64,000 bases of DNA from Candidatus Omnitrophota bacterium (GTDB lineage Bacteria > Omnitrophota > Gorgyraeia > Gygaellales > Profunditerraquicolaceae). The stretch is from assembly GCA_026387405.1 (NCBI GenBank), contig JAPLLV010000025.1:44009-108008 (forward strand). Reading direction: 5' to 3'. The notes beneath the pieces are model-generated. The model was not told the DNA's origin. It saw nothing but the letters and a program-made list of their open reading frames with translations, and did no database searches. The translations under genes and the position numbers were made by a program. Shown in pieces: positions 43,093 through 62,779 of the stretch. The stretch's first letter is position 1; each line of letters opens with the position of its first letter.

Positions 43093-43168
43093 AGTCATTG
43101 CGAGGAGGCCGAAGGCCGACGAAGCAATCCCTAAAACGTGATTGCTTCGCACTTCGTGCTCGCAATGA
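43093..43168. repeat. small palindromic repeat element, intergenic copy (TIRs GTCATTGCGAG / CTCGCAATGAC, inner hairpin)
   Basis: Terminal inverted repeats plus an internal stem CGAAGCAATC-loop-GATTGCTTCG. A second copy lies in-frame inside folC at 45127-45270. Confidence 0.5.
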
Positions 43169-43190
43169 CAACAGATAATAGGGGGACAAG

Positions 43191-44783
<1,593 letters not shown>

Positions 44784-44831
44784 TGAGTATATCGCAACGA
44801 TAAGCGATTAGCGATATGCGATAAGCAAATA

Positions 44832-46361: not shown

Positions 46362-47404
46362 GTCGGTGCTTATTAGTGTTAGGAGCAAATATTCTAAGCA
46401 TCGCTTTACTCTTTTTAATAGTAGAAATTGCATACCGATTTTACAAGGATGGTTTTTGGGGGGCTATTAAAAATATAAGGGAATATTACAACGTTCCGTA
46501 CTCGAATTTAGGAACGAAAGATTGGGTTGTCTATGACAAAATCCTGGGATACAAGTTGAACTCAAAGGCTTCTTCAGACAATAAGTTGTATATAGTAGAT
46601 CAAGAGGTAATGCTGCCTAAGCCGAAGGGGGCTTACAGGATAATCTTCTTGGGCGACTCCATTCCATTTGATAACCCGAGCTTTGTTGATTATATAAAGG
46701 AAGCAACTGCTAAAAATACAAGCATAGAGATCATAAAAGCTTGCGTGCCAGGTTATACCGCTTATCAGGAACTGATGTTTATGCAGAGAGACTTAATTCA
46801 TGCTACTCCCAATCTGGTGGTATGGTGTTATTGTTTAAATGATAACCATAGATTTCTTCATAAATTTAATGTGGACGGAAAAATGCTGAGGACTCAAGAG
46901 GCAGAGGATAGTTTAAAGATTAATTCGCTTTTTGACAAAATAATAAGCAGGAGCTATGTGCTTAGTTTGATTAAAGTGCACTTAGTCGCTAAAAAGCTTG
47001 CCAGAAAAACCAGCGATTTTCCCTGGGAAGACCTCCCCGACTTTAATATCGCATGGAAAGACTATTCTTGGATAAATTATGAGGAGAATTTAAGAAAGAT
47101 GGAGCAGATTTTAGATAAAAACGGCAGTAAATTATGCATACTCATTTTTCCATTCGGACCTCAGTTAAATCCAGGGACCCTAGCATTAAATCGAGATTTC
47201 GTTTTAAAGCCCCAAGCGAAATTAAAAGAATTGTGTATGAGATATCACGTTCCTGTGCTCGACCTATTTTCTCTCTTTTATTCACTTGAGAATAAGCACG
47301 AGAAAATATTTAAAGATGATGGAATCCATCTAACAAAGCTAGGACATGAGGTTGTCTCCCAAGAGGTCATAGAATTTTTAAAAAAACAAGGTTTATTGTA
47401 TTAA
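46349..47404 (+). CDS. membrane-anchored SGNH/GDSL-family hydrolase
   Basis: N-terminal TM helix; block I RIIFLGDSIPF, block III CLNDNHR, block V DDGIHLTKLGHEVV. Confidence 0.6.
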   Translation: MLKLSRCLLVLGANILSIALLFLIVEIAYRFYKDGFWGAIKNIREYYNVPYSNLGTKDWVVYDKILGYKLNSKASSDNKLYIVDQEVMLPKPKGAYRIIFLGDSIPFDNPSFVDYIKEATAKNTSIEIIKACVPGYTAYQELMFMQRDLIHATPNLVVWCYCLNDNHRFLHKFNVDGKMLRTQEAEDSLKINSLFDKIISRSYVLSLIKVHLVAKKLARKTSDFPWEDLPDFNIAWKDYSWINYEENLRKMEQILDKNGSKLCILIFPFGPQLNPGTLALNRDFVLKPQAKLKELCMRYHVPVLDLFSLFYSLENKHEKIFKDDGIHLTKLGHEVVSQEVIEFLKKQGLLY

Positions 47405-47472: not shown

Positions 47473-48924
47473 ATGAGAGACGTCCTTAAGGTTATAAATT
47501 CAACCGATACCATCGCTGCAGTCGCTTCATCTTTGGGCGAATCCGGGATCGGCATCGTACGTATAAGCGGCCGGGAAGCGCTGTCTATCGCAGATAAAAT
47601 TTTTCTTTCCAAGGATAATAAAAAGCCTTCTGAATTCAGGGCCTACACCGTGCATTACGGTTGGATTATTGACCAACGACCAACGACCAACCCCGCCTGC
47701 CTAGTGATACCCGGGGCGGGCAGGGACCAACGACAAAACATAGTTGACGAAGTAATCTTGACCGTGATGCGCGCGCCGCGTTCCTATACCAAAGAGGACG
47801 TAGCAGAGATTAACTGCCACGGAGGCATCGTTGGTCTCCGTAGGGTGTTAGGTTTAGTTTTGGAGAACGGTTGCCGCCTGGCTGAGCCGGGTGAATTTAC
47901 CAAGCGCGCCTTTTTAAACGGGAGGATCGACCTTACGCAGGCAGAGGCAGTCTTAGATATAATCCGCGCCAAGACTGATTCCGCTTTGAGCTTGGGCGTT
48001 GAGCAGCTGAAAGGCGGGCTATCCAGGAAGATTAATAAATGGAGAGAAGGCTTATTGGATGCCCTTGCGACCCTGGAGGCGAGCATAGATTTTCCTGAGG
48101 AAGAACTGAACGCCGCAGGCCTTGAGGTAATTTCCGCAAGGATCGCCAAGATAAATAGCGAGATGAAGTCTATGCTGGAAAATGCAAGGTTCGGCAGGGT
48201 AATGCGCGAGGGGGTGCATACGGTTATCTGCGGCCGGCCGAATGTAGGAAAGTCTTCGCTTTTAAACGCGCTTTTAAGACAGGAGCGCTCAATTGTTACG
48301 GCAGTGCCCGGGACCACCCGCGACACTATCGAAGAGATCATAGATATAAAAGGTATTCCTGTAAGGATCGTGGATACGGCCGGGATCCTGGAGCCGCGTG
48401 ACCTGGTTGAAAGACACGCGGTCCTGCGCTCAAAAAAGCAGATTGACCTGGCGGATCTGGTGATCCTGTTGTTTGACGGCGCTCATCAGCTGACCAAGGA
48501 TGACAGGGCGTTGATAAGCAGGCTTAAGAGAAGGACGACCTTGGCGGTGATTAATAAGATAGACAAATCTCAGAAAATAGAGCGTCCATATATTGCCAAG
48601 AATTTTAAGCAGGTAGTAGAGATTTCGGCAAAGAACGGCAAGAATATCGATTTACTCGAAGATTCTATAGCCGGTATGGTCTTTAGCGGCAGGGCCGGTT
48701 CGCCGGGTGCGCTTTTTGTCGCAAATATGCGGCATCTTGAATCTATCAAAGAAGCGCAAAAACTTATTGCAGAAGCACTTAATTCGGTAGATAATGGTCT
48801 GTCCTTGGAATTCATTAGCCAGGATCTTAAGGAGGCGGTCGCCAACCTGGATAAGCTTTTAGGCAGGAGTTTTTCCGAAGATCTCCTGGATAAGATCTTT
48901 AGCGATTTCTGCATAGGGAAATAA
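47473..48924 (+). CDS. mnmE: tRNA modification GTPase MnmE
   Basis: INCHGG, G1 [15 protein letters not shown]3 DTAG, C-terminal FCIGK. A repeat-encoded insertion sits in the N-terminal domain loop. Confidence 0.9.
47671..47737. repeat. about 65 bp GC-rich imperfect-palindromic repeat element, copy in-frame within mnmE
   Basis: GACCAACGACCAACCCCGCCTGCC-(t/c)(a/g)GTGATAC-(c/a)(c/a)GGGGCGGGCAGGGAC(C/T)AACGAC. A second copy lies at 61766-61830. Encodes [21 protein letters not shown]. Confidence 0.5.
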
Positions 48925-48935
48925 GCGAGGTAAGC

Positions 48936-49493
48936 GTGGATAAGAAAAAAATAGAACATGCGGTCAAGGATATATTAGAGGCGATAGGCGAGAATCCTAA
49001 GCGCAAAGACCTGCAAGATACCCCCAGACGGGTGGCTGAAATGTATGAAGAGATTTTCGCCGGTATCGGCAAGGATCCCAAAAAAGAACTGGAGGTAATT
49101 CTTGACCAGAAGCATAACGAGATAATCCTTTTAAAGAATATTCCTTTGTATTCGATCTGTGAACACCACTTAACCCCTTTTGTGGGCAAGGCAAGCATTG
49201 CTTATATACCCAAACAGGGCCGGGTGACAGGGTTAAGTAAGCTGGCGCGCGTGGTTGATACTCTGGCAAAGCGGCCGCAGGTACAAGAACGCCTGACTAC
49301 GCAGATCGCCGAGATAGTTATGGAGAAACTCAAGCCCAAAGGTTGTATGGTGGTGTTGGAGGCCGAGCACCTTTGCATGTCTATGCGCGGAGTCAGGAAA
49401 CCCGGCACCACTACCGTGACCTCGGCGGTAAGAGGGATATTCCAGGACAATGAAAAGACGCGCGCAGAAACCCTGGCGCTATTAAAGATGTAA
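48936..49493 (+). CDS. folE: GTP cyclohydrolase I
   Basis: CEHHLTPF…GKASIAYIP and the C-terminal region typical of FolE. GTG start. Confidence 0.9.
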
Positions 49494-49515
49494 TAAAAGA
49501 GGAGGAACAGGAAGG

Positions 49516-50511
49516 GTGAAAAAAATAACTCTATTGGCGTTTTTAGTTTTAGTATTGTCCGGTTGCGCCGCATACAGATTTGGCTACGGTAAACCGCCGC
49601 ATAACAAAGGTTACCTTGCCTCGCGAGACGGATATACTATCTTGGAATATACCGTAGGCCAGGATAACTCTGTTCCCGAAAACCTTAAGTTTGCCAAGGA
49701 GCGTTTTAAAAGGCGGCGCCATACCGTCGAGCGCTATTATAAAAAGATGGGTTATATCGAAAACCGTTTTAAAGAGTGGTTCTGGGATCCGCCGGTATAT
49801 TTCGTAAAATTAATAACCGGGGTTTTTCGTGTCCCCGCCCTGGCTATATCGGATTACAGGTACAGGCATAATCCAAAATACCGGGATAGGGTCAAGAGAA
49901 AAGAGGAGGAGCAGGATTTAAAAGAGGAGACGATTAACAAAAAATTACGGGAAGCCCTGGGTGTTTATATACAAAAAGACCTGGCAAAAGAGGGTCCGGT
50001 TACGGCCAAAACGGAAGAACCCAAACCCGTAGAACCCAAGCCGGAAGAACCCAAACCAGAAGCCGTCCAACAAGCGAAGCCTGTCCAGCCGGTTGAGGCC
50101 GAAGTTGCGCAGGAAGTTAAGGAAGGAACAAAGAGCGTAAGCCTCGGCGTAGTTACAGAAGTGCCCGGAAAAAAGGCGCGTAAGGCTCCCGCAAGAAAAC
50201 CAAAATCCCGCCCCAAGAAAGAAACGCAGGTTATCGGAGAACCCGTGGCATTGATTATGGCCAAGCCCGTTACCGGCTATTCGCCGTTAAAAGTGCAGTT
50301 TTACGGAGGCAGGTCTTATTCTCCCCACGGCAGGATAATCGCTTATTCGTGGGATTTCGGCGACGGTGATACCTCTACAAAGAAGAATCCCGCCAATACA
50401 TATTTGAGCATGACATACGAACCGCGAGAGTTTACCGTTACTCTTACTGTCACCGACAATAAGGGTAACAGCGCTTCCGCCAATCAGGTGATCGAGGTGC
50501 TTAATAAATAG
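49516..50511 (+). CDS. lipoprotein with Pro/Glu/Lys-rich linker and C-terminal PKD domain
   Basis: SD GAGGAGG. Lipobox LSGC. EPKPVEPKPEEPKPE repeats. PKD-like YSWDFGDGDTS…VTLTVTDNKGNSA. Confidence 0.6.
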   Translation: MKKITLLAFLVLVLSGCAAYRFGYGKPPHNKGYLASRDGYTILEYTVGQDNSVPENLKFAKERFKRRRHTVERYYKKMGYIENRFKEWFWDPPVYFVKLITGVFRVPALAISDYRYRHNPKYRDRVKRKEEEQDLKEETINKKLREALGVYIQKDLAKEGPVTAKTEEPKPVEPKPEEPKPEAVQQAKPVQPVEAEVAQEVKEGTKSVSLGVVTEVPGKKARKAPARKPKSRPKKETQVIGEPVALIMAKPVTGYSPLKVQFYGGRSYSPHGRIIAYSWDFGDGDTSTKKNPANTYLSMTYEPREFTVTLTVTDNKGNSASANQVIEVLNK

Positions 50512-50723
50512 GCATCTTTCAAAGTCCCCCCCCATCTAGATCCCCATAAATCCGCTTTTAGTCATTGCCATCTTAAGCAGCCTGTTTTTCTTCCCTGTCC
50601 GGGCTGCAGATTTTGCCTGCTTGCTTATGGCTCATTTACGATCACGTTGAATAATTCTATTGAAATTTTATTTAAAATGTAGTAACATAACAAGTTAGGT
50701 ATATAGAACGATACTATAATATA

Positions 50724-52205
50724 ATGCAAAAAAATAAAAAAAGAGCAATAGCAAAAGGTGTTCTATATTTTGTTATTTGTTTCTTTGGTTTTGTAATCCC
50801 TGCTTCAGCAGAGGTTGCGGTAGCGGATAATAAAAATCTCACCTTCAATATCCTGCCATATCTTAGAACAGACGTAGTCACCTTAAAGAATAACATTGGC
50901 CTGGATAGCAGAAATAAAGACGACTCTTCGACTTATTTCGGTGTTGACTACAGTTTAGGATTCGACCTTAAATTTAAAGACAGCGGTCCCGAGGCATACC
51001 TGAAGTTAGAGAGAAACGGCCCCTATGACTACGATGCGCCGCTATTTATCCGTAATACATTAAGGACATCCACCGCGCAGGCAGAGAGGTACCGCGGAAA
51101 CGAACTATTACCTCACGTAGAGGAATTCTGGTATGACACTCCTTTATTTGAACTTCCTTTAAGGCTCAAGAGCGGACTTTTTGCTTACCATGCGGCTAAT
51201 GACCTCGCCGTACCCGCCAGCTACGAGAATTATTCACTTAGCTTATATAGAGAAAATGAAAATTTAAAGTGGCACTTTTATTATTGTAAACCAGATTTGG
51301 TTAATAAAAGTTACCTGGGGCCGCGCATTAAACAAGAGAGAGAGCAGGGTATCCATTATACGCCTAATAAGGCCAACTTTTTTGCTACAGACGCAGTTTT
51401 CACTTTCAAAAATAATTCCTTGCAACCCTATGTAGAGGTTCTTTCCGATGGTTCCGGAGATAGTCGCGCAAATCTTTTTTCTACGCCCACGCATAATGAT
51501 TTATTGGGCACTCTCGGCCTTGCCTGGAATTCCACTTTTGATAAATTATCTATAGCGATAGAAACAGCCAGGAATTTCGGAAAGGTACAGAGCAGCGATG
51601 AGAATTTCAAGGACGTAGAGCATTGCGGGTATCTTTTATACGCGGATGCCGCGTATAATTTTGAACGGATAATCCCGCATTCCAGGTTTGTCCTTGCTTC
51701 AGGCAACAAAGTTACTACGGATATGGTAGATAATGGAGATGAGGTGTTGACCAGCGGCAAAAATCGTGCTTTTAGCGCCTACTCGCCGTTCAATACCAAT
51801 TTATTAGATTCGATATATCCTGACGCGAATAATCTGCCTTTAGTGGCTATGGGCGCAGGCAATGGGTTGAATTACGGCATCAACCGTCCCACCACCTTTG
51901 GAGACCCCCGGTTATTTGTTCTTGACTGGTGGTATTTAAGGGCAATGGAAAGAGGGGTAGGCACCTTTGAAGGATCAAGTAAGATGCTCTCACCCGATTT
52001 AGGCAACGAATTGGATCTATCTTTTAATTACGAACTTAATAAAAATATTACTCTTGGCCTGTTGAGCGGTTGTTTTTTACCGGGGAGATATTACAAGGAA
52101 GACAGGGATGATACAGAAGGTAGTCTTTTCACCCCCTTTGTGCGGGGCGATGGCGAGGCCGACCCTGCCTATCAGATCGAATTAAGCTGTACTTTAACTT
52201 TTTAA
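50724..52205 (+). CDS. secreted protein, probable outer-membrane beta-barrel
   Basis: N-terminal signal peptide, alternating amphipathic beta-strand pattern, C-terminal …LSCTLTF ending in Phe. Confidence 0.5.
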   Translation: MQKNKKRAIAKGVLYFVICFFGFVIPASAEVAVADNKNLTFNILPYLRTDVVTLKNNIGLDSRNKDDSSTYFGVDYSLGFDLKFKDSGPEAYLKLERNGPYDYDAPLFIRNTLRTSTAQAERYRGNELLPHVEEFWYDTPLFELPLRLKSGLFAYHAANDLAVPASYENYSLSLYRENENLKWHFYYCKPDLVNKSYLGPRIKQEREQGIHYTPNKANFFATDAVFTFKNNSLQPYVEVLSDGSGDSRANLFSTPTHNDLLGTLGLAWNSTFDKLSIAIETARNFGKVQSSDENFKDVEHCGYLLYADAAYNFERIIPHSRFVLASGNKVTTDMVDNGDEVLTSGKNRAFSAYSPFNTNLLDSIYPDANNLPLVAMGAGNGLNYGINRPTTFGDPRLFVLDWWYLRAMERGVGTFEGSSKMLSPDLGNELDLSFNYELNKNITLGLLSGCFLPGRYYKEDRDDTEGSLFTPFVRGDGEADPAYQIELSCTLTF

Positions 52206-52239
52206 TAAACCGGGCTCTAAATACGGGAAGGATATCTTT

Positions 52240-53808
52240 ATGCGGGTGCAGGCAAAATTAATCTCCTTATTGCTATTCTTCAGCGCTATATTTATCGCGG
52301 GTAGATACTGGTATCAGGCATTCGAGAATAAAAGAATGTACCTGCTGTTCCAAAGTGATAACAAAGAAAAAACTATCTACTTTGATAAGATCGTCAAGTT
52401 GGAAGGGGTAAACCTGGAAGTGTTTGCCATCGATTATACCTACTGGGATGAGATGGCGGATGCTATCCGTAAAAATGATCTAGAATGGGCTAAGAAAATG
52501 ATGGACGAGACCGTCCTCAAGACTTATAAAGCGGATGCGGTATGGGTATACAATACAAATTTTTCCCTGTTTTATTCCATAAATAGCCAATATGCCTCTG
52601 TGATAAAAGAATCCCCCATCCCCAAAGAAGCTATCAATGAGATATTCTTAAAAAAACGCCTTTGCCATTTTTTTGTAAATACCAGCGCAGGTATAATCGA
52701 AATTCGCGGCGCCACAGTGCATCTTACCTCGGATCCGGAAAGAAAGACCCCTCCGCAGGGTTATTTTTTCGTCGGCCGGCTATGGAAGAGCGGGTATGTC
52801 AGTGAACTAGGGGAGCTGATGGGAGGAGAGATTAAGGTTGGCACAAAAAAAGAAACAATCCCCGGTCTTGAAGCCCTGGCAGCCGCTAATTCCATTATTT
52901 TCTCCAGAGAACTTGCAGACTGGAGAGGGAATCCGATAGCCTATGTTTACGTTACCATACAATCCCAGGAGTTACAAACTTACAAACTTTTTTCCAGAAA
53001 TGCGTCGGCAGTATTTATCGTTTTTCTTGTCTGCGTTATAATTTTTATGGCCTTATTCATTACCACAACAGTAAATATACCCTTAGGAATAATCTCCGGC
53101 GTTTTAAAAAAAGATGATCCCGCCGGCCTGCGCAGTCTGGAAAAAGATACCAGCGAGTTCGGCGATATCTCACGGTTAATACGCAGATTCTTCAAGCAGA
53201 AACAAGAACTGATCCAAGAGATCGCCGAACGTAAGAAGGTAGAGGATGCGCTGAAAGAGAACGAGGCTTATTTCACGGTAATATTAAATTCATTACCGGT
53301 AGGAATGGTGGTCATCGATTCTGAAACACACATTATCGCTGAAGCCAATCCCGCGGCTGCTAGAATGATTGGCGCGGATAAAAGTCAAATAGTAGGGAAG
53401 CTTTGCTATCAATACATCTGTCCGGCAGAGAAAGGAAAATGCCCGGTTAGCGGCTTAGGTCAGAACATCGAAGGTTCCGAGCGCGTGCTGCTGAGGGCTA
53501 ATGGCGACAGGGTACCGATTCTTAAAACTGTGATCTCAGTTACATTGAAAGGCCGTAAATACCTCTTAGAGAGTTTTATGGATATCGCGGACCGTAAAAA
53601 AACAGAGGAACAACAGAAGGTCCTTTTGAAAGATTTAGAGGATATGAATAAGATCATGGTGGGTCGCGAACTCAAGATGATCGAGTTAAAACAGGAGATC
53701 AACAGATTGAGCCGGGAACTGGGAAGACAGTCGCCTTATAATGAAGAGGATAAAGGGGTTGGAGGAGAGAATAAAGACAACAATATCGCTGATTCCGATG
53801 GAGCCTAG
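52240..53808 (+). CDS. membrane sensor protein: periplasmic domain, PAS domain, coiled coil (no kinase domain)
   Basis: Two TM helices flank a roughly 230 aa periplasmic region. PAS (FTVILNSLPVGMVVID…AEANPAAARMIG). Cys motif CYQYICPAEKGKC. C-terminal coiled coil. Confidence 0.6.
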   Translation: MRVQAKLISLLLFFSAIFIAGRYWYQAFENKRMYLLFQSDNKEKTIYFDKIVKLEGVNLEVFAIDYTYWDEMADAIRKNDLEWAKKMMDETVLKTYKADAVWVYNTNFSLFYSINSQYASVIKESPIPKEAINEIFLKKRLCHFFVNTSAGIIEIRGATVHLTSDPERKTPPQGYFFVGRLWKSGYVSELGELMGGEIKVGTKKETIPGLEALAAANSIIFSRELADWRGNPIAYVYVTIQSQELQTYKLFSRNASAVFIVFLVCVIIFMALFITTTVNIPLGIISGVLKKDDPAGLRSLEKDTSEFGDISRLIRRFFKQKQELIQEIAERKKVEDALKENEAYFTVILNSLPVGMVVIDSETHIIAEANPAAARMIGADKSQIVGKLCYQYICPAEKGKCPVSGLGQNIEGSERVLLRANGDRVPILKTVISVTLKGRKYLLESFMDIADRKKTEEQQKVLLKDLEDMNKIMVGRELKMIELKQEINRLSRELGRQSPYNEEDKGVGGENKDNNIADSDGA

Positions 53809-53827
53809 AAAGGTTATTAATTAACAA

Positions 53828-55855
53828 ATGAGCGTCCTTGCGAATTATTATTTCAATTTCTATGCTATCCCCGTAGGCGTTGCCGCCATATCAGTTCTGA
53901 TAATGGGGATAATTGTGTTCTTGCAGAATACAAGATCAGTTATTAACCTGTTCTTCGCGTTAACTTGTTTGAGTGTCTTCTTATGGCTTTCCGGTTTTTC
54001 CATGATTTATTTAAGCAAAGAGTCCCCAGTAGCGTTATCTTGGTTTAGGTATTATTCCCTGATCGGCATAGTTACTATTGCGCCAAATATCTATTTCTTT
54101 GTAAGGGCGCTGGCAAAATCATTAAAGAATCAAAAGCGCTTAGTCATATCCGTTTATTCCCTCGCGCTTATTTCTTATCTGTCAGGATTTAACTCTCATT
54201 TTGCTACCGGTGCAATGTATTTTTGGGGGTGGTATCCCTTATTCGGCCCCTTTTCTTACCCTTTTCTTACCTTCTTTTTAGTATTGATGTTTGTAAGTTT
54301 TCGCGAGCTTTGGTTGTCACAAGGGAAGATGGCGACAAAGATCGAGAATAAAAGAATAAAAATTGTATTTATCGGCGTCCTGGTGGGATACACTGCTGCG
54401 TTGGATTTTCTCCCCGCCCTTCAAATAGGGTTATATCCCTTTGGCTACTTCTATATCTTTGTGTGGATCTCGTTTATGGGCTACGCTGTCTTCAGATATA
54501 AGTTGATGAAACTCACGCCGGCGATTGTTGCCGAACAGGTTATTTCCATTATCCCCAATTTTTTGATTTTGGTTGATAGGGAGGGTAAAATAATCAGGGC
54601 CAACCGCGCCATTGAAGAAGCGCTCGGGTATGATAAAGAAGAGCTGATCAAAAAGCCGGTAGAGGCGATTATTCCGCAAAAGGATACGGTTAAATTATTG
54701 TTTAGTGATTTAGAGAAAAAAGAGACTATTGCTAATTTAGAAACTACTTACCAGTCAAAAGGCGGAAAGGCAATATCGGTTATTTTTTCCGGGGCAGCAA
54801 TACATAATGATGCCGGAGATATCGTGGGGTTCGTAGTTACGGCGCTAGACAACACAGGGCGCAAAAAGGCCGAGGAAGAAAGAGAGAGGTTGATCAAAGA
54901 ACTTAAAGAGCACCAGGAGTTACTTGAGGAGCAGAAGCAAGGGGCAGAGGATTCCGGCAGGGCAGTAAAGAATGTAGCCGAAGATCTTATGGAGTCAAAG
55001 AAGATATTGGAGTATCAAAAAAAGTCTCTCGAAGGTGTTAATAAAGAATTAGACGACTTTACCTATATAGTTTCGCATGATTTAAAAGAACCCTTAAGAA
55101 GCATAGACGCCTACTCAAAATTCATAGCAGATGATTACAAGGATAAATTAGGCGAAGAGGGGAGGCATTATCTGGAACGGGTAAGAGCAAATACAGAAAG
55201 GATGAAAAGGCTTATTGAAGACCTCCTTGAGATATCCAGGCTCAAAAAGAGAGGGAGCACCATTGTAGAGGTCGCAACAGAGGATATCATAGGCGAAGTA
55301 GAGATGAGGCTTGAATACGCTATAAAGCAAAAGGCCGTAGAGATCATAATAAAAGATAAGCTTCCAAGGATGTTTTGCGACCGGGTTAGATTAACCGAGG
55401 CCTTTTTGAATCTGGTCTCCAACGCCATTAAGTTTAATGATAAACAAAAACCCGTAATAGAAATCGGATGCAGTGAAAAAGGGGATTTTTATGAATTTTA
55501 CGTAAGGGATAACGGCATTGGTATACAAGAGGAATATTTTGACAAGATATTTGAGATATTCCAGAGGTTAGGTAAGAGGGAGGACGCTGAAGGGACCGGC
55601 GCAGGCCTTACCATAGTAAAGAAGATAATCCAGCTGCATAGGGGGAAGATCTGGCTTGAATCTAAAATAGGAGAGGGTTCCACGTTCTATTTTAATATCC
55701 CCAAGGAAAAGAGCGTTATTTTAGGAAATAAATTGATAGGCGAGATACTGGTAGAGAAAAAGCTTGTAACAGAGGATGAGATTAAAAAGGCGTTAGACGA
55801 ACAGGAGAGGACGGGCAGGATAGACAAAGGAGGGCAGGATGGCGGAAGAACATAG
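53828..55855 (+). CDS. sensor histidine kinase with N-terminal 7TM domain, PAS, HisKA and HATPase_c
   Basis: Seven N-terminal helices; H-box FTYIVSHDLKEPLRSI; N/G boxes VRDNGIGI…GTGAGLTIVKKI. Confidence 0.8.
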   Translation: MSVLANYYFNFYAIPVGVAAISVLIMGIIVFLQNTRSVINLFFALTCLSVFLWLSGFSMIYLSKESPVALSWFRYYSLIGIVTIAPNIYFFVRALAKSLKNQKRLVISVYSLALISYLSGFNSHFATGAMYFWGWYPLFGPFSYPFLTFFLVLMFVSFRELWLSQGKMATKIENKRIKIVFIGVLVGYTAALDFLPALQIGLYPFGYFYIFVWISFMGYAVFRYKLMKLTPAIVAEQVISIIPNFLILVDREGKIIRANRAIEEALGYDKEELIKKPVEAIIPQKDTVKLLFSDLEKKETIANLETTYQSKGGKAISVIFSGAAIHNDAGDIVGFVVTALDNTGRKKAEEERERLIKELKEHQELLEEQKQGAEDSGRAVKNVAEDLMESKKILEYQKKSLEGVNKELDDFTYIVSHDLKEPLRSIDAYSKFIADDYKDKLGEEGRHYLERVRANTERMKRLIEDLLEISRLKKRGSTIVEVATEDIIGEVEMRLEYAIKQKAVEIIIKDKLPRMFCDRVRLTEAFLNLVSNAIKFNDKQKPVIEIGCSEKGDFYEFYVRDNGIGIQEEYFDKIFEIFQRLGKREDAEGTGAGLTIVKKIIQLHRGKIWLESKIGEGSTFYFNIPKEKSVILGNKLIGEILVEKKLVTEDEIKKALDEQERTGRIDKGGQDGGRT

Positions 55856-56315
55856 GATCATAAAAATACTTTTGGTAGAAGATAACCCCGATGATATTGA
55901 TATAACAGAAAGGGCGCTTAAAGAAGCAAAGGTAGTTAATAAGCTCTGGATTGTAAGAGACGGGCAGGAGGCGCTGGATTTTTTGCAGCATAAAGGACAG
56001 TACCTTGACCATTCTGCCAGCGCAAAGCCCGGCTTGATACTCTTAGACATAAATCTCCCAAAGCTTAACGGGATAGATGTCCTTAAGGCCATAAAAGAAG
56101 ACGCTGATTTAAAGAGGATACCCATTGTGATGCTTACTGTTTCCAAGAGAGATGAGGATATAATCAAGAGTTATAGCTACGGCTGCAATAGTTTCATCCA
56201 GAAGCCGGTTAACTTTGAGAGATTTGTAGAGGTAGTTAAGGAGATAAGTCTGTACTGGGGGTTGTTGAATATCTATCCGCCTAATGGTCAGGAAGCGCAA
56301 GACAGCATCCGCTAA
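55839..56315 (+). CDS. stand-alone response-regulator receiver (CheY-like)
   Basis: ILLVEDNPDDIDI…LDINLPKLNG…MLTVS. Confidence 0.8.
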   Translation: MAEEHRIIKILLVEDNPDDIDITERALKEAKVVNKLWIVRDGQEALDFLQHKGQYLDHSASAKPGLILLDINLPKLNGIDVLKAIKEDADLKRIPIVMLTVSKRDEDIIKSYSYGCNSFIQKPVNFERFVEVVKEISLYWGLLNIYPPNGQEAQDSIR

Positions 56316-56324
56316 TTATTTTTT

Positions 56325-57542
56325 ATGCCTATAAGAATTTTGCTGATAGAGGATAACCAGGATCACGCAGAGATTACAAAGAGGATCCTGCAAAAATCAG
56401 ACGCAGGCTATCAGGTGGATTCTGCCATGGATGCGCAAGAGGGTTTGAAAAAAATATTTGAAAATCCTTACGATGCAGTGCTCTGTGACTATCGCCTTCC
56501 GGGTTTAACGGCGCTTGATATATTAAAAGAGATGAATAATAAAAAAAAGGACACCCCTTTTGTTGTAGTTACCGCTCTGGGAAACGAAAAGGTTGCGGTG
56601 GACATAATGAAGGAAGGCGCGTATGATTATATAGTCAAAGACGTTTTGTATAACGATACATTGGATATAGTTATTAAAAAGGTCATCGATAGATACAAAG
56701 CAAAGAAAGAAAAAGAGGGGCTGGAAGAAGAGATAAGAAAGGCATATGTGGAACTAAGAGAAACACAGGATCAACTTATCCAGTCTGAGAAATTAAGCGC
56801 TATAGGTCAGTTAGCCAGCGGAGTGGCGCATGAAGTAAGGAACCCTTTAGCGATAATAATGCAAGGGCTCAATTATCTGGAAGATAAGATACCCGCCACA
56901 GAAAGGGAAGCCTCTGAAATCTTGATCATGCTTAAAGATAACATAAAAAGAGCGGATAAGATCATAAACACTCTTCTTGATTTTTCCAGAGCTGGAAGTT
57001 TGAATTTACAGCCGGAAGATATAAACTCTATTTTGGAAATTTCTTTAAATTTGGTAAGGGCCAGACTTAAATTCGAGAATATCGATGTTATATTAGAGAC
57101 AAAAGAAGATATACCCTTTGTTTTGGGAGATAAGAACAAATTAGAACAGGTGTTCATTAATATATTTTTGAATGCGGTCCAGGCTATGCCCAAAGGCGGC
57201 AGGATTATTATCCGCAGTTTTGATAAAAAATTAGAAGAAATAAAAAACGGCATAGGTAAAAGAGCGGATGATCATTTTCAGGTTGGAGAAAAGACTGTAA
57301 TAGTTGAAATTGAAGACACGGGCATCGGTATTACTGAAAAAAACCTGAAGAGAATCTTTGATCCATTCTTTACTACTAAAACCACAATGGGTGGTGCCGG
57401 TTTAGGATTATCTGTGGGTAGAAATATAATCCATATGCATAAAGGCCTGATATTCGCAGAAAGCAAACCCGGGGAGGGGACTAAAATAACCATCCTTTTA
57501 AAGGTGGCCAAAGGTGATAGAGTGAGCAAGAAAAAGGAATAA
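56325..57542 (+). CDS. hybrid receiver-histidine kinase (REC + HisKA + HATPase_c)
   Basis: REC (ILLIEDNQDHAEI…DYRLPGL); H-box VAHEVRNPLAII; EDTGIGI…GGAGLGLSV. Confidence 0.8.
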   Translation: MPIRILLIEDNQDHAEITKRILQKSDAGYQVDSAMDAQEGLKKIFENPYDAVLCDYRLPGLTALDILKEMNNKKKDTPFVVVTALGNEKVAVDIMKEGAYDYIVKDVLYNDTLDIVIKKVIDRYKAKKEKEGLEEEIRKAYVELRETQDQLIQSEKLSAIGQLASGVAHEVRNPLAIIMQGLNYLEDKIPATEREASEILIMLKDNIKRADKIINTLLDFSRAGSLNLQPEDINSILEISLNLVRARLKFENIDVILETKEDIPFVLGDKNKLEQVFINIFLNAVQAMPKGGRIIIRSFDKKLEEIKNGIGKRADDHFQVGEKTVIVEIEDTGIGITEKNLKRIFDPFFTTKTTMGGAGLGLSVGRNIIHMHKGLIFAESKPGEGTKITILLKVAKGDRVSKKKE

Positions 57543-57572
57543 TGGGCTTATTGTAAAAAATGGAGGGGGGAT

Positions 57573-57959
57573 ATGTGGGAGAAAAAAGGGGGAAAAAAGA
57601 TATTGATCGTTGATGACGAAGAGGATTTCACGAAATTGATAAAATTAAACCTTGAGCGAACCGGAAAGTATGAAGTTAAAACAGAGAACCAGGGCGCATT
57701 CGGCTTTACCACCGCCAAGGCCTTTAAACCGGATTTAATTCTATTGGATATCTTACTGCCGGATGCAGAAGGCAGCGAAGTGGCTTCTCAGCTGAAAGAT
57801 GATGAAGCTACCAGGAATATCCCAATCGTATTTTTAACTGCAATTATAGCTAAACAGGAAGTAAAAGAGAGCGGCGGCGTTATAGGCGGCCATCCTTTTA
57901 TATCTAAACCGGTAGACATAAAGCAGCTTATCGAGGTTATTGACAAAAATATTTCCTGA
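57573..57959 (+). CDS. stand-alone response-regulator receiver
   Basis: ILIVDDEEDFTKLIKLNLE…LDILLPDAEG…FLTA. Confidence 0.8.
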   Translation: MWEKKGGKKILIVDDEEDFTKLIKLNLERTGKYEVKTENQGAFGFTTAKAFKPDLILLDILLPDAEGSEVASQLKDDEATRNIPIVFLTAIIAKQEVKESGGVIGGHPFISKPVDIKQLIEVIDKNIS

Positions 57960-58059
57960 AATTCATAGAAACTATTTCTAGGCAGTTCGAGAAGAATTTC
58001 TGTCTCTTCTTGCCGCCTTAAAAAGGCACAAAATACAACATATTTTTTTCTTTCTCTCC

Positions 58060-59634
58060 CTAAACAAAGAAATCCCTATCTAAGCTCCGGTACTGGATAG
58101 CCTCTGATAGGTGCTCTGTCTTAATGTTTTCACACCCCGCCAGGTCCGCAATCGTCCTTGATACCTTCAGTATCTTATCATACGCCCTTGCGCTGAAATT
58201 AAGCTCAGCCATTGCCATCTTGAGCAATCCGCTTTCCTCCTTGCCTAACTCGCAAAACTTTCTCACCTGTTTGTGGCTCATCTGGGCGTTACACATAATA
58301 CCTTCACCCTTTCCGCCACAAATCGTGGCGGGTCCGCCAAGCATTTTGGCGGAAAATCTTTCCTTTTGAATCGCGTGTGCCTTTTCCACCCTTTCTTTGA
58401 TTTGAGCGGAGCTTTCCGCAGGCAAGGTACTGGTCAATTCCTGGTATCTGGCAGCAGGCACTTCTATGTGTATATCTATCCTGTCAAGCAGCGGCCCGGA
58501 TATTTTTGAGCGGTATCTGGCGATCTGGGTGGTTGAGCAACGGCAGGGGTGTTTATGTTGTCCTTGTGTACCGCAGGGGCAGGGGTTCAGGGCGCAGACA
58601 AGCATGAACGCTGCAGGAAAGGTCAGGGAGCGGTTGATGCGCGATATAGATATACAGCCGTCCTCCAGAGGTTGACGCAGCGCCTCTAAGGCGTTACGGT
58701 GGAACTCCGGGAGCTCATCCAAAAATAATACGCCTTGGTGCGCCAGGCTTATCTCTCCGGGTTTGGGGATCGATCCCCCTCCTACGAGGGCAATGTCTGA
58801 GATCGAGTGATGCGGATTACGAAAAGGCCTTACGCAAACCAGGCCGCTTTTTATCAGGCAGCTTCCTGTTACCGAATGCACCTTGGTAACTTCCAGGATT
58901 TCCTCTAAGGATAGGTCAGGCATAATGGTGGGGATTCTTTTGGCGAGCATAGTTTTTCCGCTCCCGGGCGGCCCGATAATGGCAATATTATGCCTTCCGG
59001 AAACAGCGACCTCCAGCGCCCTCTTTGCCAAATATTGCCCCTTTACTTCTGAAAAATCTACTGCGTAATGCCCGTTTTCCAGGAAAAGCCTGTCTATATC
59101 CGATACCAAAGGAGGGATCGCCGCAGGATTATGCAGGAACTCAACCGTTTCTTTCAGGGTCCTTAAAGGGAAAACGCGCGCCTCCGGAACTATCGCGGCC
59201 TCCCGGGCGCTCTGCTGCGGCAGTATGATATTCTTTAGCCTGGATTTGGACAAGGCAATGGCAATAGGCAGCCCTCCCTGGATTGGCCGCAGAGAGCCAT
59301 TTAAAGACAATTCGCCCAGTATGTAGTATTCCATAAGCTTCTGGCTATCCAATTGGCCGCTTGCGGCGAGTATCCCTAAGGCAATTGCCAGGTCAAAGGC
59401 AGGCCCTTCTTTTTTTATGTCTGAAGGCGCCAGGCTTACCGTGATCCTTTCTCCAGGCCAGTTAAAGCCGGAATTCTTTATTGCGGATTTGACCCGCTCT
59501 TTGCTCTCCCTTATAGCAGTATCTGCCAGCCCCACCAGGGTTACCGCCGGCAGGCCTGAGGAGACATCCACTTCGATTTCAACAGGGTATGCCTCTATGC
59601 CGAACAAGCCGAAACAAAGAGATTTGGCAAGCAT
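58060..59634 (-). CDS. comM: YifB/ComM-family Mg-chelatase-like AAA+ ATPase
   Basis: N-terminal ChlI-like domain ([18 protein letters not shown]), Walker [12 protein letters not shown]-terminal Cys-rich Mg-chelatase C domain. Confidence 0.85.
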
Positions 59635-59838
59635 CTTTTACCTCCTTCGCAGTAGTAGACACCCGATTTTATCGGTTTATCCATCCTTACCTATATAAGA
59701 CGTTAAAAAGTGCCAAATCTAACAGGGATTTTTGTCCCGCCAGGGACTTCCTCCTCTGGCGGGGCTTGCTATCACCCCTGAAAATCCCTTGCTTTTTGTC
59801 TTTGTAATCTATATAATAATAGCCTATAACAGAATCAG

Positions 59839-60465
59839 ATGAAGAACCTTAAGGTAGTTTTAATCGCTTTTTTGGTTGGGATAACGGCAGTCTGTGTCTT
59901 TGAGTATCTGACCCTGCTTAGAGAGAAGATGATGCTGCTGGATAGCTTAAATAAGACCAAGAATGAGCTGGGGCTCCTTCAGCAAGAGAGACTAAACCTT
60001 TTGCAGGGATTAGAGAAAGAGAAAGAGCAGGAGAACCAGCTGGAGGGGCTCAAGGTTTTATATAAGAATAACCTAAGGGCGACAAGAAGAAAAGTTGCCA
60101 AACTCCGCGCAGAGCAGAAACTAAGCGAAGACCTCTCTGGCCATGTTAATATCCTTAAGCTTGAAAATTCTGTGCTGCGCAGGAGGTATGCAAGGTTGAA
60201 TCAGAAGCTGGATCAGTTAGAGCAAAGAAATCAGGATTTTCAGCAGAAGTTTAACTCCTTAAGCGAGCTTAAGAAGGCGATACAGGCCTTGCGGCGTAAG
60301 GAGCGAAAAGTAGAAGAGGGGCGCAAAGTAGAAGAGGTGATGGTACAGGAGTCACCGACCAGAAAAATAATCAAAGGCAATAAGGGGTTTCTGGTTAAAG
60401 ACGGTAAGCCCACCCTTCCGCTTAAGATCAATATCGAAGTAACCCCGGATACTAAATTGCCATGA
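59839..60465 (+). CDS. membrane-anchored coiled-coil protein, unknown function
   Basis: One N-terminal TM helix, then a long heptad-rich Leu/Glu/Lys/Gln region. Confidence 0.4.
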   Translation: MKNLKVVLIAFLVGITAVCVFEYLTLLREKMMLLDSLNKTKNELGLLQQERLNLLQGLEKEKEQENQLEGLKVLYKNNLRATRRKVAKLRAEQKLSEDLSGHVNILKLENSVLRRRYARLNQKLDQLEQRNQDFQQKFNSLSELKKAIQALRRKERKVEEGRKVEEVMVQESPTRKIIKGNKGFLVKDGKPTLPLKINIEVTPDTKLP

Positions 60466-60908
60466 ATGAAATTTTCCCGCAGATTGTGAAGAATAAGATC
60501 TTTATGACTACACTCGCCGCCTGGATAATCGCCCAGATGGTTAAGGTTACCTTAGGGGTAATGCGTGAAAAAAGGTTTGATTTCCGCTGGTTTATAGGAA
60601 CCGGCGGTATGCCTTCCAGCCATGCCGCCGGCGCCTCTTGCCTAGCCACCGCCATCGGGCTTGAATTCGGGTTCGACACGGTGTATTTTGCACTTGCCGC
60701 GGCATTCGCTCTGGTAGTGATGTTCGATGCCCAAGGGGTACGCAGGGCAACCGGAAGGCAGGCCAGGATATTGAATAAGATAACCGAGGATATCTACTGG
60801 CAGGGTAAGATTAAAGAGCACCGCCTGCGCGAACTCGTGGGGCATACTCCGATGGAAGTGATCGTGGGGTTTTTATTAGGCGTAACCATAGCTGTATTGG
60901 CTCAATAA
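60462..60908 (+). CDS. DUF212 / divergent PAP2-family membrane protein (YuiD-like)
   Basis: GMPSSHAAGASCLATAIG…FDAQGVRRATGRQARILN matches the DUF212 signature. Confidence 0.7.
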   Translation: MNEIFPQIVKNKIFMTTLAAWIIAQMVKVTLGVMREKRFDFRWFIGTGGMPSSHAAGASCLATAIGLEFGFDTVYFALAAAFALVVMFDAQGVRRATGRQARILNKITEDIYWQGKIKEHRLRELVGHTPMEVIVGFLLGVTIAVLAQ

Positions 60909-60930
60909 TATTAACAAAAGAGAGGATTTA

Positions 60931-61764
60931 ATGAATAGAAGATTGTTGGTAATCCTGATAATTATGATAGCAGCGGTAATTTCTCTTGCGGTATTCATGG
61001 GAAAGGGCCATAGAAAATCCGCAAAAGTGACTAAATCAACTAATGTAACCGCTCCGGTTTCCAGCTCTGCCGGGGCCCTGTTGGCCCGGGCAAAGGACTT
61101 TGAGGCAAAGGGCAATCTCTGGGAGGCCAAACTCGTTTATCAGCAGTTAATTGCGGCTTATGCAAATTCCCCGGAGGTGATGGATTGGCAAAAGAAGTCC
61201 GAAGAATTGAATATGGGATTGTTGTTTTCTCCCGCGATCACGCCTAAAAGCGTTTCCTACGAGATAAAGCACGGCGATACGCTTACCAAGATCGCCAAAG
61301 AGTTCAAGACTACCACCCAGCTGATCATGAAGAGTAATCATCTTTCCGACGATAAGATCGTTCCCGGGAGAAAGATCAAAGTTTGGAATACTCCTTTTAG
61401 CATACTTGTGGATAAATCCCAGAATATCCTTATGTTAAAGAGTGGAGAAGAGATATTAAAGACTTATATTGTTTCGACGGGTGTAAATAATTCTACGCCG
61501 GTGGGCACATATAAGATTAATAATAAGCTTGTCAATCCTACCTGGTTTAAGGCAGGGGCGGTGGTGGCCCCGGGAAGCGCGGATAACCTCCTGGGTACGC
61601 GCTGGCTGGGATTTGACCTCCCCGGTTATGGTATTCACGGTACCATTGATCCACAGAGCCTAGGCAAGCAGGTCACGCAGGGGTGCGTGCGCATGGCCAA
61701 TAGCGAAGTGGAAGAGTTATATTCTATCGTCCCAACCGGCATTGAAGTAACAATCGTTGATTAA
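60931..61764 (+). CDS. L,D-transpeptidase (YkuD family) with LysM domain
   Basis: Signal anchor; LysM (YEIKHGDTLTKIAKEF); catalytic GIHGT…GCVRM. Confidence 0.8.
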   Translation: MNRRLLVILIIMIAAVISLAVFMGKGHRKSAKVTKSTNVTAPVSSSAGALLARAKDFEAKGNLWEAKLVYQQLIAAYANSPEVMDWQKKSEELNMGLLFSPAITPKSVSYEIKHGDTLTKIAKEFKTTTQLIMKSNHLSDDKIVPGRKIKVWNTPFSILVDKSQNILMLKSGEEILKTYIVSTGVNNSTPVGTYKINNKLVNPTWFKAGAVVAPGSADNLLGTRWLGFDLPGYGIHGTIDPQSLGKQVTQGCVRMANSEVEELYSIVPTGIEVTIVD

Positions 61765-61765
61765 A

Positions 61766-61830
61766 ACTAACGACCAACCCCGCCTGCCCGGTGATACAGG
61801 GGCGGGCAGGGACTAACGACCAACGACTAA
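61766..61830. repeat. about 65 bp GC-rich repeat element, intergenic copy immediately upstream of the accA start
   Basis: CTAACGACCAACCCCGCCTGCCCGGTGATACAGGGGCGGGCAGGGACTAACGACCAACGAC. Homologous to the in-frame mnmE copy. Confidence 0.5.
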
Positions 61831-61831
61831 T

Positions 61832-62779
61832 ATGGCTGGCCTTGATTTTGAAAAACCGATCACCGAACTCGAAAAGAAGATCGAAGAACTAAAAGCTTTT
61901 GTCTCGGACAAAAAGATCGATCTCACTTCCGAAGTGAGGCGTCTTGAGGAGAAGCTGGAGTATTTAAAAAAGGACACTTACGGAAGCCTTACTGCCTGGC
62001 AGAGGGTGCAGCTTGCCCGGCATCCGCAGCGGCCGTACACCCTGGATTACGTAAGTATGTTTTTGACCGATTTTCTGGAGCTGCACGGCGACCGCAGTTT
62101 TGCCGACGACAAGGCCATGATCACGGGTTTAGCCAATTTCGAAGGCCAGAAGGTAGTTGTGATCGGGCACCAGAAGGGCAGGGACACCAAGGAGAATCTC
62201 AAGCGGAACTTCGGTTGTGCGCACCCGGAGGGATACCGTAAGGCCTTAAGGATGATGCAGCTTGCCGAAAAATTCGATCTACCGATTATAGTTTTTATTG
62301 ACACGCCCGGCGCCTATCCGGGCATTGACGCCGAGGAACGCGGCCAGGCCCAGGCCATTGCCTTGAATTTAAGAGAGATGTCCAGCATTGCCGTCCCCAT
62401 TGTGGCTACGGTCATCGGCGAGGGGGGCTCAGGCGGGGCCTTAGGGATAGGCGTGGCAGATAGGGTCTGTGTGCTGGAAAATGCCTATTATTCTGTGATT
62501 TCTCCCGAGGGGTGCGCGGCGATCCTTTGGAAAAGCGGGGCCAAGGCGCCTCAGGCTGCCGAGGTCTTGAAATTAACCGCCCAGGACCTATCGGCTATGG
62601 GCATCATCGATGAGGTGGTCCCGGAACCTTTAGGCGGGGCGCACCGCGACCCGCAAAGGATGGGAGAGACCCTCAAAGGAGTTATCAAGAAACATCTGGG
62701 TGAGTTAAAGCATTATGATAAAGAAAAGCTTTTGGGCTTACGTTACCAGAAGTACAGAGGCATAGGGAAATTGGCATGA
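61832..62779 (+). CDS. accA: acetyl-CoA carboxylase carboxyltransferase alpha subunit
   Basis: [20 protein letters not shown]…[11 protein letters not shown]…[10 protein letters not shown]…GEGGSGGAL. Confidence 0.9.

Follow-up and report, generated by a model that had tools for sequence, protein, structure and literature searches.

A 32/33-nucleotide GC-rich hairpin nested in phase within heptamer arrays of an Omnitrophota genome: a candidate mobile micro-element in mnmE and upstream of accA

The stretch of DNA analyzed here, hereafter the window, comprises 64,000 nucleotides (positions 44,009 to 108,008 of contig JAPLLV010000025.1, assembly GCA_026387405.1) from a Candidatus Omnitrophota bacterium and contains two copies of a short GC-rich hairpin of the form CCCGCCTGCC-loop-GGCGGGCAGG, 33 nt and 32 nt in length. 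One copy lies in frame within mnmE, and the other one in the spacer between a ykuD-like L,D-transpeptidase gene and accA; both are embedded in tandem arrays of the heptamer GACYAAC. The window was compared primarily with a syntenic sister genome, GCA_041643015.1, with ~90% nucleotide identity across the syntenic blocks (loci L001 and L126). The features at the two sites are as follows.

47473..48924, + strand: mnmE, tRNA modification GTPase, 483 aa (Pfam TrmE_N, MnmE_helical and MMR_HSR1), host of hairpin copy 1
47671..47691, + strand: 5' part of the mnmE array, (GACCAAC)x3, translated DQRPTTN (Tandem Repeats Finder [TRF] period 7, 3.0 copies, 100% match); also present in sister locus L001
47692..47724, + strand: hairpin copy 1, 33 nt, CCCGCCTGCCTAGTGATACCCGGGGCGGGCAGG, in frame in mnmE, 11 codons P74-R84
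47725..47739, + strand: 3' part of the mnmE array, GACCAAC and the degenerate unit GACAAAAC; identical in the sister
60931..61764, + strand: LysM/YkuD L,D-transpeptidase gene (Pfam YkuD and LysM), 5' of hairpin copy 2
61765..61778, + strand: 5' part of the accA-spacer array, AACTAAC GACCAAC, read from the sequence
61779..61810, + strand: hairpin copy 2, 32 nt, CCCGCCTGCCCGGTGATACAGGGGCGGGCAGG, in the ykuD-accA spacer
61811..61831, + strand: 3' part of the accA-spacer array, GACTAAC GACCAAC GACTAAT, directly abutting the accA ATG
61832..62779, + strand: accA, acetyl-CoA carboxylase carboxyltransferase alpha (Pfam ACCA, E = 4e-150)

The proteins closest to those of the window carry the Omnitrophota name, and its AccA is 100% identical to P0121 (NCBI: Candidatus Omnitrophica). 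MnmE of the window, with all catalytic motifs intact, is 91% identical to the MnmE of the sister genome (P0001) and aligns end to end with the solved structures 3GEH and 1XZP; an exact-product look-up returned no record for it. The spacer that houses copy 2 is 67 nt long, between the ykuD stop at 61764 and the accA ATG at 61832, and it was in this position, between the L,D-transpeptidase and accA, that the preliminary description of this DNA had placed the second copy of a repeat spanning 47671-47737 and 61766-61830; both copies are indeed found at these coordinates.

This two-copy repeat ranks first among the direct-repeat families of the window. Flanks included, the copies have two exact matches in common, the 20-mer AACGACCAACCCCGCCTGCC and the 15-mer GGGGCGGGCAGGGAC; by simple arithmetic, the expectation for an exact 20-mer repeat in 64 kb is ~0.002. 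The hairpin cores are identical at 29 positions and differ by 3 substitutions and a single indel that accounts for the lengths of 33 and 32 nt. Both copies start with CCCGCCTGCC, directly 3' of GACCAAC, and are oriented identically relative to the heptamer strand. The imperfect internal palindrome that had been noticed earlier is borne out by folding: the core forms a stem of 11 bp that includes a single C·A mismatch as well as a single G·U pair (-20 to -23 kcal/mol), and copy 2 has a fold z-score of -2.97. When the whole window was scanned locally for hairpins, no other GC-rich palindrome of this type turned up. The AACGACCAAC sequences previously read as flanking direct repeats turned out to be tandem arrays of 4-5 GACYAAC units, such as the (GACCAAC)x3 detected by TRF, that continue 3' of the hairpin. 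GACYAAC arrays occur in the window at these two sites only, and arrays of period 7 are its main class of short tandem repeats above shuffled sequence (3 vs 0), along with one array of period 11.

The sister genome carries both arrays without the palindrome. In mnmE, the sister (L001) has an unbroken (GACCAAC)x4 followed by GACAAAAC, whereas the window has (GACCAAC)x3, the 33 nt, and then GACCAAC and GACAAAAC; the additional sequence thus separates unit 3 from unit 4, falls on a codon boundary and adds 11 residues. In the ykuD-accA spacer, both the sister (L126) and a second assembly from another run (L127) have an unbroken 35-nt array, AACTAAC GACCAAC GACTAAC GACCAAC GACTAAT, and the window has the same five units plus 32 nt between units 2 and 3. 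At both loci, the numbers of units are equal, no base is lost, no target sequence is duplicated, and the junction, GACCAAC^GACYAAC, is an exact unit boundary. The unit immediately 3' of the hairpin is GACCAAC in mnmE and GACTAAC upstream of accA, in each case the unit that the sister has at that locus. Deletion by slippage between the flanking repeats is disfavored because it would take one unit, yet the unit counts are equal, and a long gene-conversion tract is disfavored because the two loci have different 3' units, each identical to its counterpart in the sister. Given that the sister has the arrays but not the palindrome, the movable part is the 32/33-nt hairpin alone, rather than a ~65-bp element bounded by direct repeats as originally proposed. 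Judging from these alignments, the hairpin is a discrete unit that was either inserted or precisely excised, at two sites.

Both copies recur in independent assemblies. The accA spacer with its hairpin is identical in the independent Logan assembly L125. The mnmE copy was confirmed indirectly, via contigs that include the neighboring GDSL gene: the array, along with the left arm and loop of the hairpin, is present in Logan contigs L234-L236 from at least three other runs, one of these contigs being recorded in 10 samples. The three contigs stop inside the hairpin, as expected at a repeat. Runs ERR15302187, ERR15302165, SRR20698638 and SRR20698650 contain the strain. At the very end of L234 (Logan SRR20698650), a single-nucleotide polymorphism in the hairpin loop, GATACCCGG to GATACGCGG, would change P80 to R, which is consistent with weak constraint on the inserted peptide.

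The alignment of MnmE sequences, the solved structures and a structural model concur with the initial suggestion that copy 1 is an in-frame insertion specific to this lineage, located in an N-terminal domain loop. The insert aligns to a gap in both 3GEH and 1XZP, and in the AlphaFold model of the window MnmE, residues 73-84 form a loop, with a predicted local distance difference test (pLDDT) score below 50, between strands E59-66 and E90-99. Among 51 aligned MnmE sequences of Omnitrophota, the HYGW-DEV segment accommodates 0-37 extra residues, often exactly 23, with 7- or 8-residue periodicities, and the inserts at this turn in the orthologs are mostly translated 7/8-mer arrays. At the DNA level (56/84 loci readable), the basal loop is 24 nt, and the inserts are either single 7/8-mer arrays, or 69-nt modules consisting of four units, an A-rich spacer and four more units with partly complementary cores (for example, L123, L124, L130, L140 and L163), or an array that holds a GC hairpin (L167, encoding PACPAGRQ). 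The insertion site is, as modeled, a tolerant surface β-turn. Inserts of 60-72 nt in this loop, most often of exactly 69 nt (L123 10188-10270, L124, L130, L140, L141, L162, L163, L164, L169 and L171), have arms that share a complementary core of 4-6 nt, for example, (TGGTTCA)4...(TGAACYA)3-4; their length is kept between lineages, and their sequence is wholly different.

At the other site, the hairpin is a stem-loop in the leader of accA, which is rich in CA and lacks a Shine-Dalgarno site; 21 nt separate the stem-loop from the ATG downstream. The possibility that this copy affects the ribosome-binding site of accA was raised in the preliminary description; copy 2, however, removes no Shine-Dalgarno site, such a site being absent both in the window, with the hairpin, and in the sister, without it, as it is in about half of the genes in the window. 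A terminator scan called no intrinsic terminator at copy 2, the stem being followed by GACTAACGACC and not by a T-run, and a promoter/terminator scan at accA detected nothing at the hairpin. In Rfam, there was no match at the gathering score in the window and none at E <= 1 over either copy.

The combination of such a hairpin with a short-period array is not confined to this genome. A scan with a pattern that fixes the stem, over one genome per species, yielded at least 128 matches, including genomes of Omnitrophota, Bacteroidota, Ignavibacteriota, Planctomycetota, Chloroflexota, Patescibacteria and Thermodesulfobacteriota. Among the matches listed, the 7-mers on the two sides of the hairpin agree at >= 5/7 positions in 16/126 cases, against 2.6 expected, and the joined flanks are enriched for periodicity at period 7 only. 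Clear in-phase cases are L025 (Omnitrophota), L052 and L053 (Ignavibacteria), L055 (Planctomycetales), L069 (Bacteroidetes), L074 and L121; in L069, a single long GATTGCG array that precedes a start codon is interrupted by two hairpins. In 1.06 Mb of Omnitrophota loci, ~0.3% of which is occupied by 7/8-mer arrays, half of the CYGCCYG...CRGGCRG hairpin sites (6/12) are in phase inside such arrays, 4/6 being in-frame parts of mnmE or folC. Relatives within Omnitrophota also have a 21-nt version of the hairpin, CCTGCCTGNCCGGCAGGCAGG (3 x 7 nt), that preserves both the reading frame and the heptamer phase. On viral contigs, the same stem is flanked by GGCACAGA repeats, and pure (GACCAAC)4-13 arrays are found as well. 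Among the latter, the (GACCAAC)x4 array of L232 lies 16 nt upstream of a start codon, L229 has the same array and flanks in a sequence stretch that ends before any ATG, and the array of L231 has 13 units.

The arrays themselves are abundant in Omnitrophota. The 79 MnmE loci (880 kb) contain 63 arrays of period 7 and 18 of period 8, with 0-3 for other periods and 0 in shuffled sequences, and the median array has 4.3 units. The same 7/8-mer unit recurs in 13/81 within-locus pairs of arrays compared to 13/3159 pairs between loci (L123, L124, L129, L132, L133, L146, L163, L171 and others), and orthologous slots are filled with different units in different genomes. In the 21-kb loci, 26 of the 29 arrays are within the purH-folC-mnmE stretch. 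A literature search found no paper tying Omnitrophota to repeats of this kind.

Thus, the hairpin is a discrete unit, its presence and absence are seamless, its position is in phase with the array, and the same stem is tied to arrays in other genomes. We consider it highly probable that we are dealing with a discrete, mobile micro-element that resides within heptamer arrays, and we favor, with moderate confidence, the fuller interpretation under which it is a non-autonomous micro-element that targets heptamer arrays and moves as outlined below, akin to repetitive extragenic palindromes (REP) and to the small dispersed repeats (SDR) of cyanobacteria. The older layer at both sites, in the window genome and in the sister alike, would be the GACYAAC array of 4-5 units, and the younger layer, the 32/33-nt GC-rich imperfect palindrome set between two units in the same orientation, with the array serving as its preferred landing site. 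Movement would probably involve a single-stranded hairpin intermediate processed in trans by a structure-specific enzyme, such as a transposase of the HUH/Y1 type (similar to the REP-associated tyrosine transposases [RAYT] or to those of IS200/IS605); this route is favored because its chemistry is seamless, strand-specific and hairpin-dependent. In mnmE, only an insertion with a length divisible by three would survive, and the copy there is 33 nt, producing a putative 11-residue extension of the surface β-turn. Upstream of accA, the 32-nt copy would place a stable stem-loop in the leader while breaking no Shine-Dalgarno site and forming no terminator. Most likely, both copies are neutral or nearly neutral passengers.

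Several observations weigh against this interpretation. The comparison is equally compatible with a gain of the hairpin in the window lineage and with its precise excision in that of the sister, given that the next outgroups carry either different sequence or nothing at the two sites: GCA_026387515.1, a lineage of 76% identity, lacks an MnmE insert, the accA spacer is 2 nt in L123 and 172 nt in L128, and the contig of P0218 begins inside accA and so provides no spacer. The cross-phylum hairpins were retrieved by a pattern that fixes the stem, so that they need not share a common descent, and matches in high-GC genomes may be due to chance. The window has two visible copies of the hairpin and not more, and the exact loop version, CCGCCTGCC-NN-GTGATAC-N0-4-GGGCGGGC, had 0 matches in the JGI metagenomes; of the repeat family announced in the preliminary description, the two-copy repeat stands, and nothing past two copies is demonstrable. 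The identical orientation of two copies is weak evidence (p = 0.5). At its foot, the hairpin stem lacks the 5' GTAG that is conserved in classical REPs. Finally, a tblastn search with Omnitrophota Y1_Tnp found no Y1 transposase homolog in the window, and no mobilizing enzyme is linked to the hairpin. Y1_Tnp genes of the IS200/RAYT-like variety, with palindromes of their own on either side, are present in related Omnitrophota loci (L124 18150-18749, - strand; L130; L146), and L077 has a Y1_Tnp gene too. In L124, the palindrome around the gene is not that of the window but GGTGACAGTCACC, with half-sites that resemble common array units (GTCAC/GACAC).

The main rival to HUH/Y1 mobilization is copy-choice, or short-homology recombination between arrays, whereby a nascent strand ending in GACCAAC switches to a hairpin-bearing GACYAAC array, copies it and returns at the next unit. 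We regard this as unlikely, although it has several points in its favor: both hairpins reside in arrays built from one and the same unit, of which the window contains no others; copy-choice would yield an in-phase insertion without duplication; and the recurrence of units within genomes, noted above for the pairs of arrays in the same locus, points to exchange or homogenization. What argues against it is the precision required, with switch points within ~3-7 nt of the hairpin on both sides and at both loci, because the polymorphism of the flanking units was not co-converted. Furthermore, the copies differ at 4 positions, and the presence of one stem in arrays of many unrelated units in different phyla would demand repeated seeding that microhomology alone does not explain. 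A more speculative, and doubtful, alternative is an active machinery that writes or replaces arrays from a genome-specific template, for instance, one based on a reverse transcriptase, a primase or an HUH enzyme, with the hairpin as a recognition or priming module. This idea comes to mind because, in Omnitrophota and apparently also in several other phyla and some viruses, arrays of about four units fill the same slots (MnmE, FolC, PurH and the intergenic junctions), the units are genome-specific yet shared among slots, and the palindromes are in phase; passive slippage plus selection is the alternative explanation for these patterns. It is less plausible still that the array with its hairpin is ancestral to both lineages and that palindrome instability led to two losses in the sister, with no recent mobility. 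Long GC-rich palindromes are prone to deletion, and the outgroups at hand fit loss as well as gain, but this scenario calls for two independent deletions of exactly 32 or 33 nt, each sparing every heptamer unit, where slipped mispairing between the flanking GACCAAC repeats would be expected to remove one; it also leaves the arrival of the same hairpin in two arrays unexplained.

Two further explanations bear on one copy or on the data themselves. The hairpin could be a selected cis-acting RNA structure for accA, that is, an mRNA stabilizer, a processing site or a translational control element, the mnmE copy being incidental. This seems very improbable, even though a stem-loop of this stability (-23 kcal/mol, z = -2.97) so close to an ATG that lacks a Shine-Dalgarno site is suggestive, and a role in translational regulation has been proposed, in other phyla, for heptamer arrays that immediately precede start codons (PMC4679880). 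Apart from the negative Rfam and terminator results, the same operon junction lacks the hairpin in the sister and is reduced to a 2-nt ykuD-accA gap in one relative (L123), and an identical stem within a coding region and in unrelated contexts of many phyla would not be expected of a gene-specific regulator. An assembly or binning artifact, namely, a chimeric join at a repeat, is the least credible of all: short-read contigs do break at the hairpin, but the accA spacer is identical in L125, the junction between the mnmE array and the hairpin recurs in the contigs from the other runs and samples, and the mnmE reading frame is intact.

Some other known types of elements were considered and rejected. 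An integron attC site came under consideration given that the flanks end in AAC, but GACCAAC is no match to RYYYAAC, and an R'/R'' pair is lacking. Clustered regularly interspaced short palindromic repeats (CRISPR), diversity-generating retroelements and group II introns were dismissed for want of a repeat-spacer structure, a template/variable repeat (TR/VR) pair and a reverse transcriptase in the window. A model of target-site duplication (TSD), in which the arrays would be footprints of repeated insertion with a 7-bp TSD, is unsupported, the unit counts in the filled and empty sites being equal.

The claim in the preliminary description that this genome places small elements in the coding regions of conserved genes holds up, as purH and folC carry them as well. 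In purH, an in-frame 66-nt double array at 43770-43835 consists of (AGTCACC/AGTCGCC) x ~4.7 followed by (GACAGGA) x ~4.6; at the same codon position, the sister has an octamer array, (AGTCACAA)x4, so that the slot is kept and its content changed. A GCGATAA-like heptamer array immediately upstream of the folC ATG (44798-44826) is kept in the sister. Within folC, (AGTTGTC)x4 and (TTCAAGG)x4 are in frame at 45609-45638 and 45750-45781, (TCAGGCG)x2 is located close to the C-terminus at 46195-46209, and the FolC alignment reveals at least five slots that vary among relatives. Another repeat family, GTCATTGCGAGG...GCAATCYCTAAAACGTGATTGYTTCGC...CTCGCAATGAC, occurs at 45128-45270 in folC and at 43095-43170 in the ychF-purH spacer. 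Its folC copy is in frame and is missing from the sister and from more distant relatives; in the ychF-purH spacer, the sister has a GCTATCA/GCTGTCA heptamer array in place of the element, and Logan contigs break within this element too. In two relatives, the ykuD-accA slot (L128 3148-3319) and the ychF-purH slot (L122 7046-7145) are filled with several unrelated GC-rich palindromes. As for gene content, a GDSL-like lipase gene (46349-47404) separates folC from mnmE in the window strain only, and the two genes overlap by a few bases in L001, L122, L123 and L124. In the sister (L126 4940-7649), a large serine recombinase gene adjoins a truncated Mg-chelatase-like gene of the comM type (357 aa vs 508 aa in relatives), which suggests that an element integrated at this gene.

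At 32-33 nt, the hairpin is among the smallest DNA units for which there is clean filled/empty evidence of discrete gain or loss, here at two sites, one of them within an essential, highly conserved enzyme. It links two poorly understood kinds of sequence, heptanucleotide arrays and tiny dispersed palindromes, in that the array appears to be the landing site of the palindrome, which enters in phase and leaves no footprint. The pairing is thus no longer limited to cyanobacteria but includes uncultivated Omnitrophota, with Bacteroidota, Ignavibacteriota, Planctomycetota and viral contigs as probable further cases. In practical terms, elements of this sort yield lineage-specific peptide inserts and spurious open reading frames, and break short-read assemblies. 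The mobilizing enzyme, if found, would insert DNA seamlessly, guided by structure, on the basis of a minimal cargo signal.

Among the known systems, IS200/IS605 elements insert and excise seamlessly, without target-site duplication and in a fixed orientation relative to a short target, and their ends are recognized as imperfect hairpins. The Omnitrophota hairpin resembles them in being seamless, alike in orientation at its two sites and free of duplication, a mechanistic analogy and not a matter of membership: IS200/IS605 carry a pair of dissimilar subterminal hairpins, and their defined target of 4-5 nt is located 5' of the left end, whereas here there is a single hairpin of 32 nt, and the flanking heptamers vary among genomes. 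Miniature inverted-repeat transposable elements (MITE) have terminal inverted repeats and a TSD; the arms of the hairpin are inverted, but no base is duplicated relative to the empty sites.

The SDRs of Nostocaceae are similar in their very small size, their dispersal and the precision with which they enter short iterated targets, and their mobility, too, was recognized by comparison of homologous regions. The study of Elhai et al. from 2008 (Genome Res 18:1484) is said to give their size as 21-27 nt, and SDRs are reportedly found also inside tandem heptameric repeats. The available descriptions of SDR5 place its insertion precisely between the 3rd and 4th nucleotides of the HIP1 sequence (PMC4390886, PMC5861425), and SDRs are reported there in Nostocaceae only (PMC5861425). 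The Omnitrophota hairpin likewise combines precise insertion with a filled/empty comparison, at 32-33 nt and in a 21-nt version in relatives. As far as a comparison by description goes, it differs from SDRs in sequence and phylum, in length, in a target that is a heptamer boundary, and in the translation of one copy within an essential enzyme.

With REPs and REPINs, the hairpin has in common an imperfect GC-rich palindrome of ~20-40 nt that forms a stem-loop, dispersal, the non-autonomous character, a presumed single-strand hairpin substrate and the lack of target duplication, none being made by REP/REPIN-RAYT elements (PMC3116915). It departs from them in lacking the 5' GTAG, a RAYT in the window and a doublet organization, and in its array-specific, in-phase insertion, for which REPs are not known; furthermore, REPs are extragenic and attain high copy numbers, whereas one copy here is inside mnmE and there are two in 64 kb. 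Rickettsia palindromic elements (RPE) are found in frame in conserved metabolic and housekeeping genes and are translated compatibly with the protein fold (PMC10969869). The mnmE copy is likewise an in-frame palindrome in a conserved gene that adds a fold-compatible peptide, but RPEs are ~100-150 bp long and encode a conserved peptide, whereas this hairpin is 33 nt there, nested in an array and also intergenic, and has no conserved peptide family.

The flanks of the hairpin, and only the flanks, are heptanucleotide tandem repeats in the accepted sense, with head-to-tail 7-nt units in excess of chance, and they are the same kind of object as the long simple sequence repeats (LSSR), the cyanobacterial short tandemly repeated repetitive (STRR) sequences, and the TAACTGA and GGGNATC arrays. 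Such heptamer arrays, known from cyanobacteria, Beggiatoaceae, Bacteroidetes and Xanthomonas, are the commonest class of long simple sequence repeats in many bacteria, often lie just upstream of start codons and show a preference for about four units (PMC4679880, PMC4692102). The arrays described in the literature are for the most part either intergenic or peripheral in proteins (PMC4679880), whereas those of Omnitrophota are in frame in MnmE, PurH and FolC, occupy orthologous slots with genome-specific units, and host palindromes.

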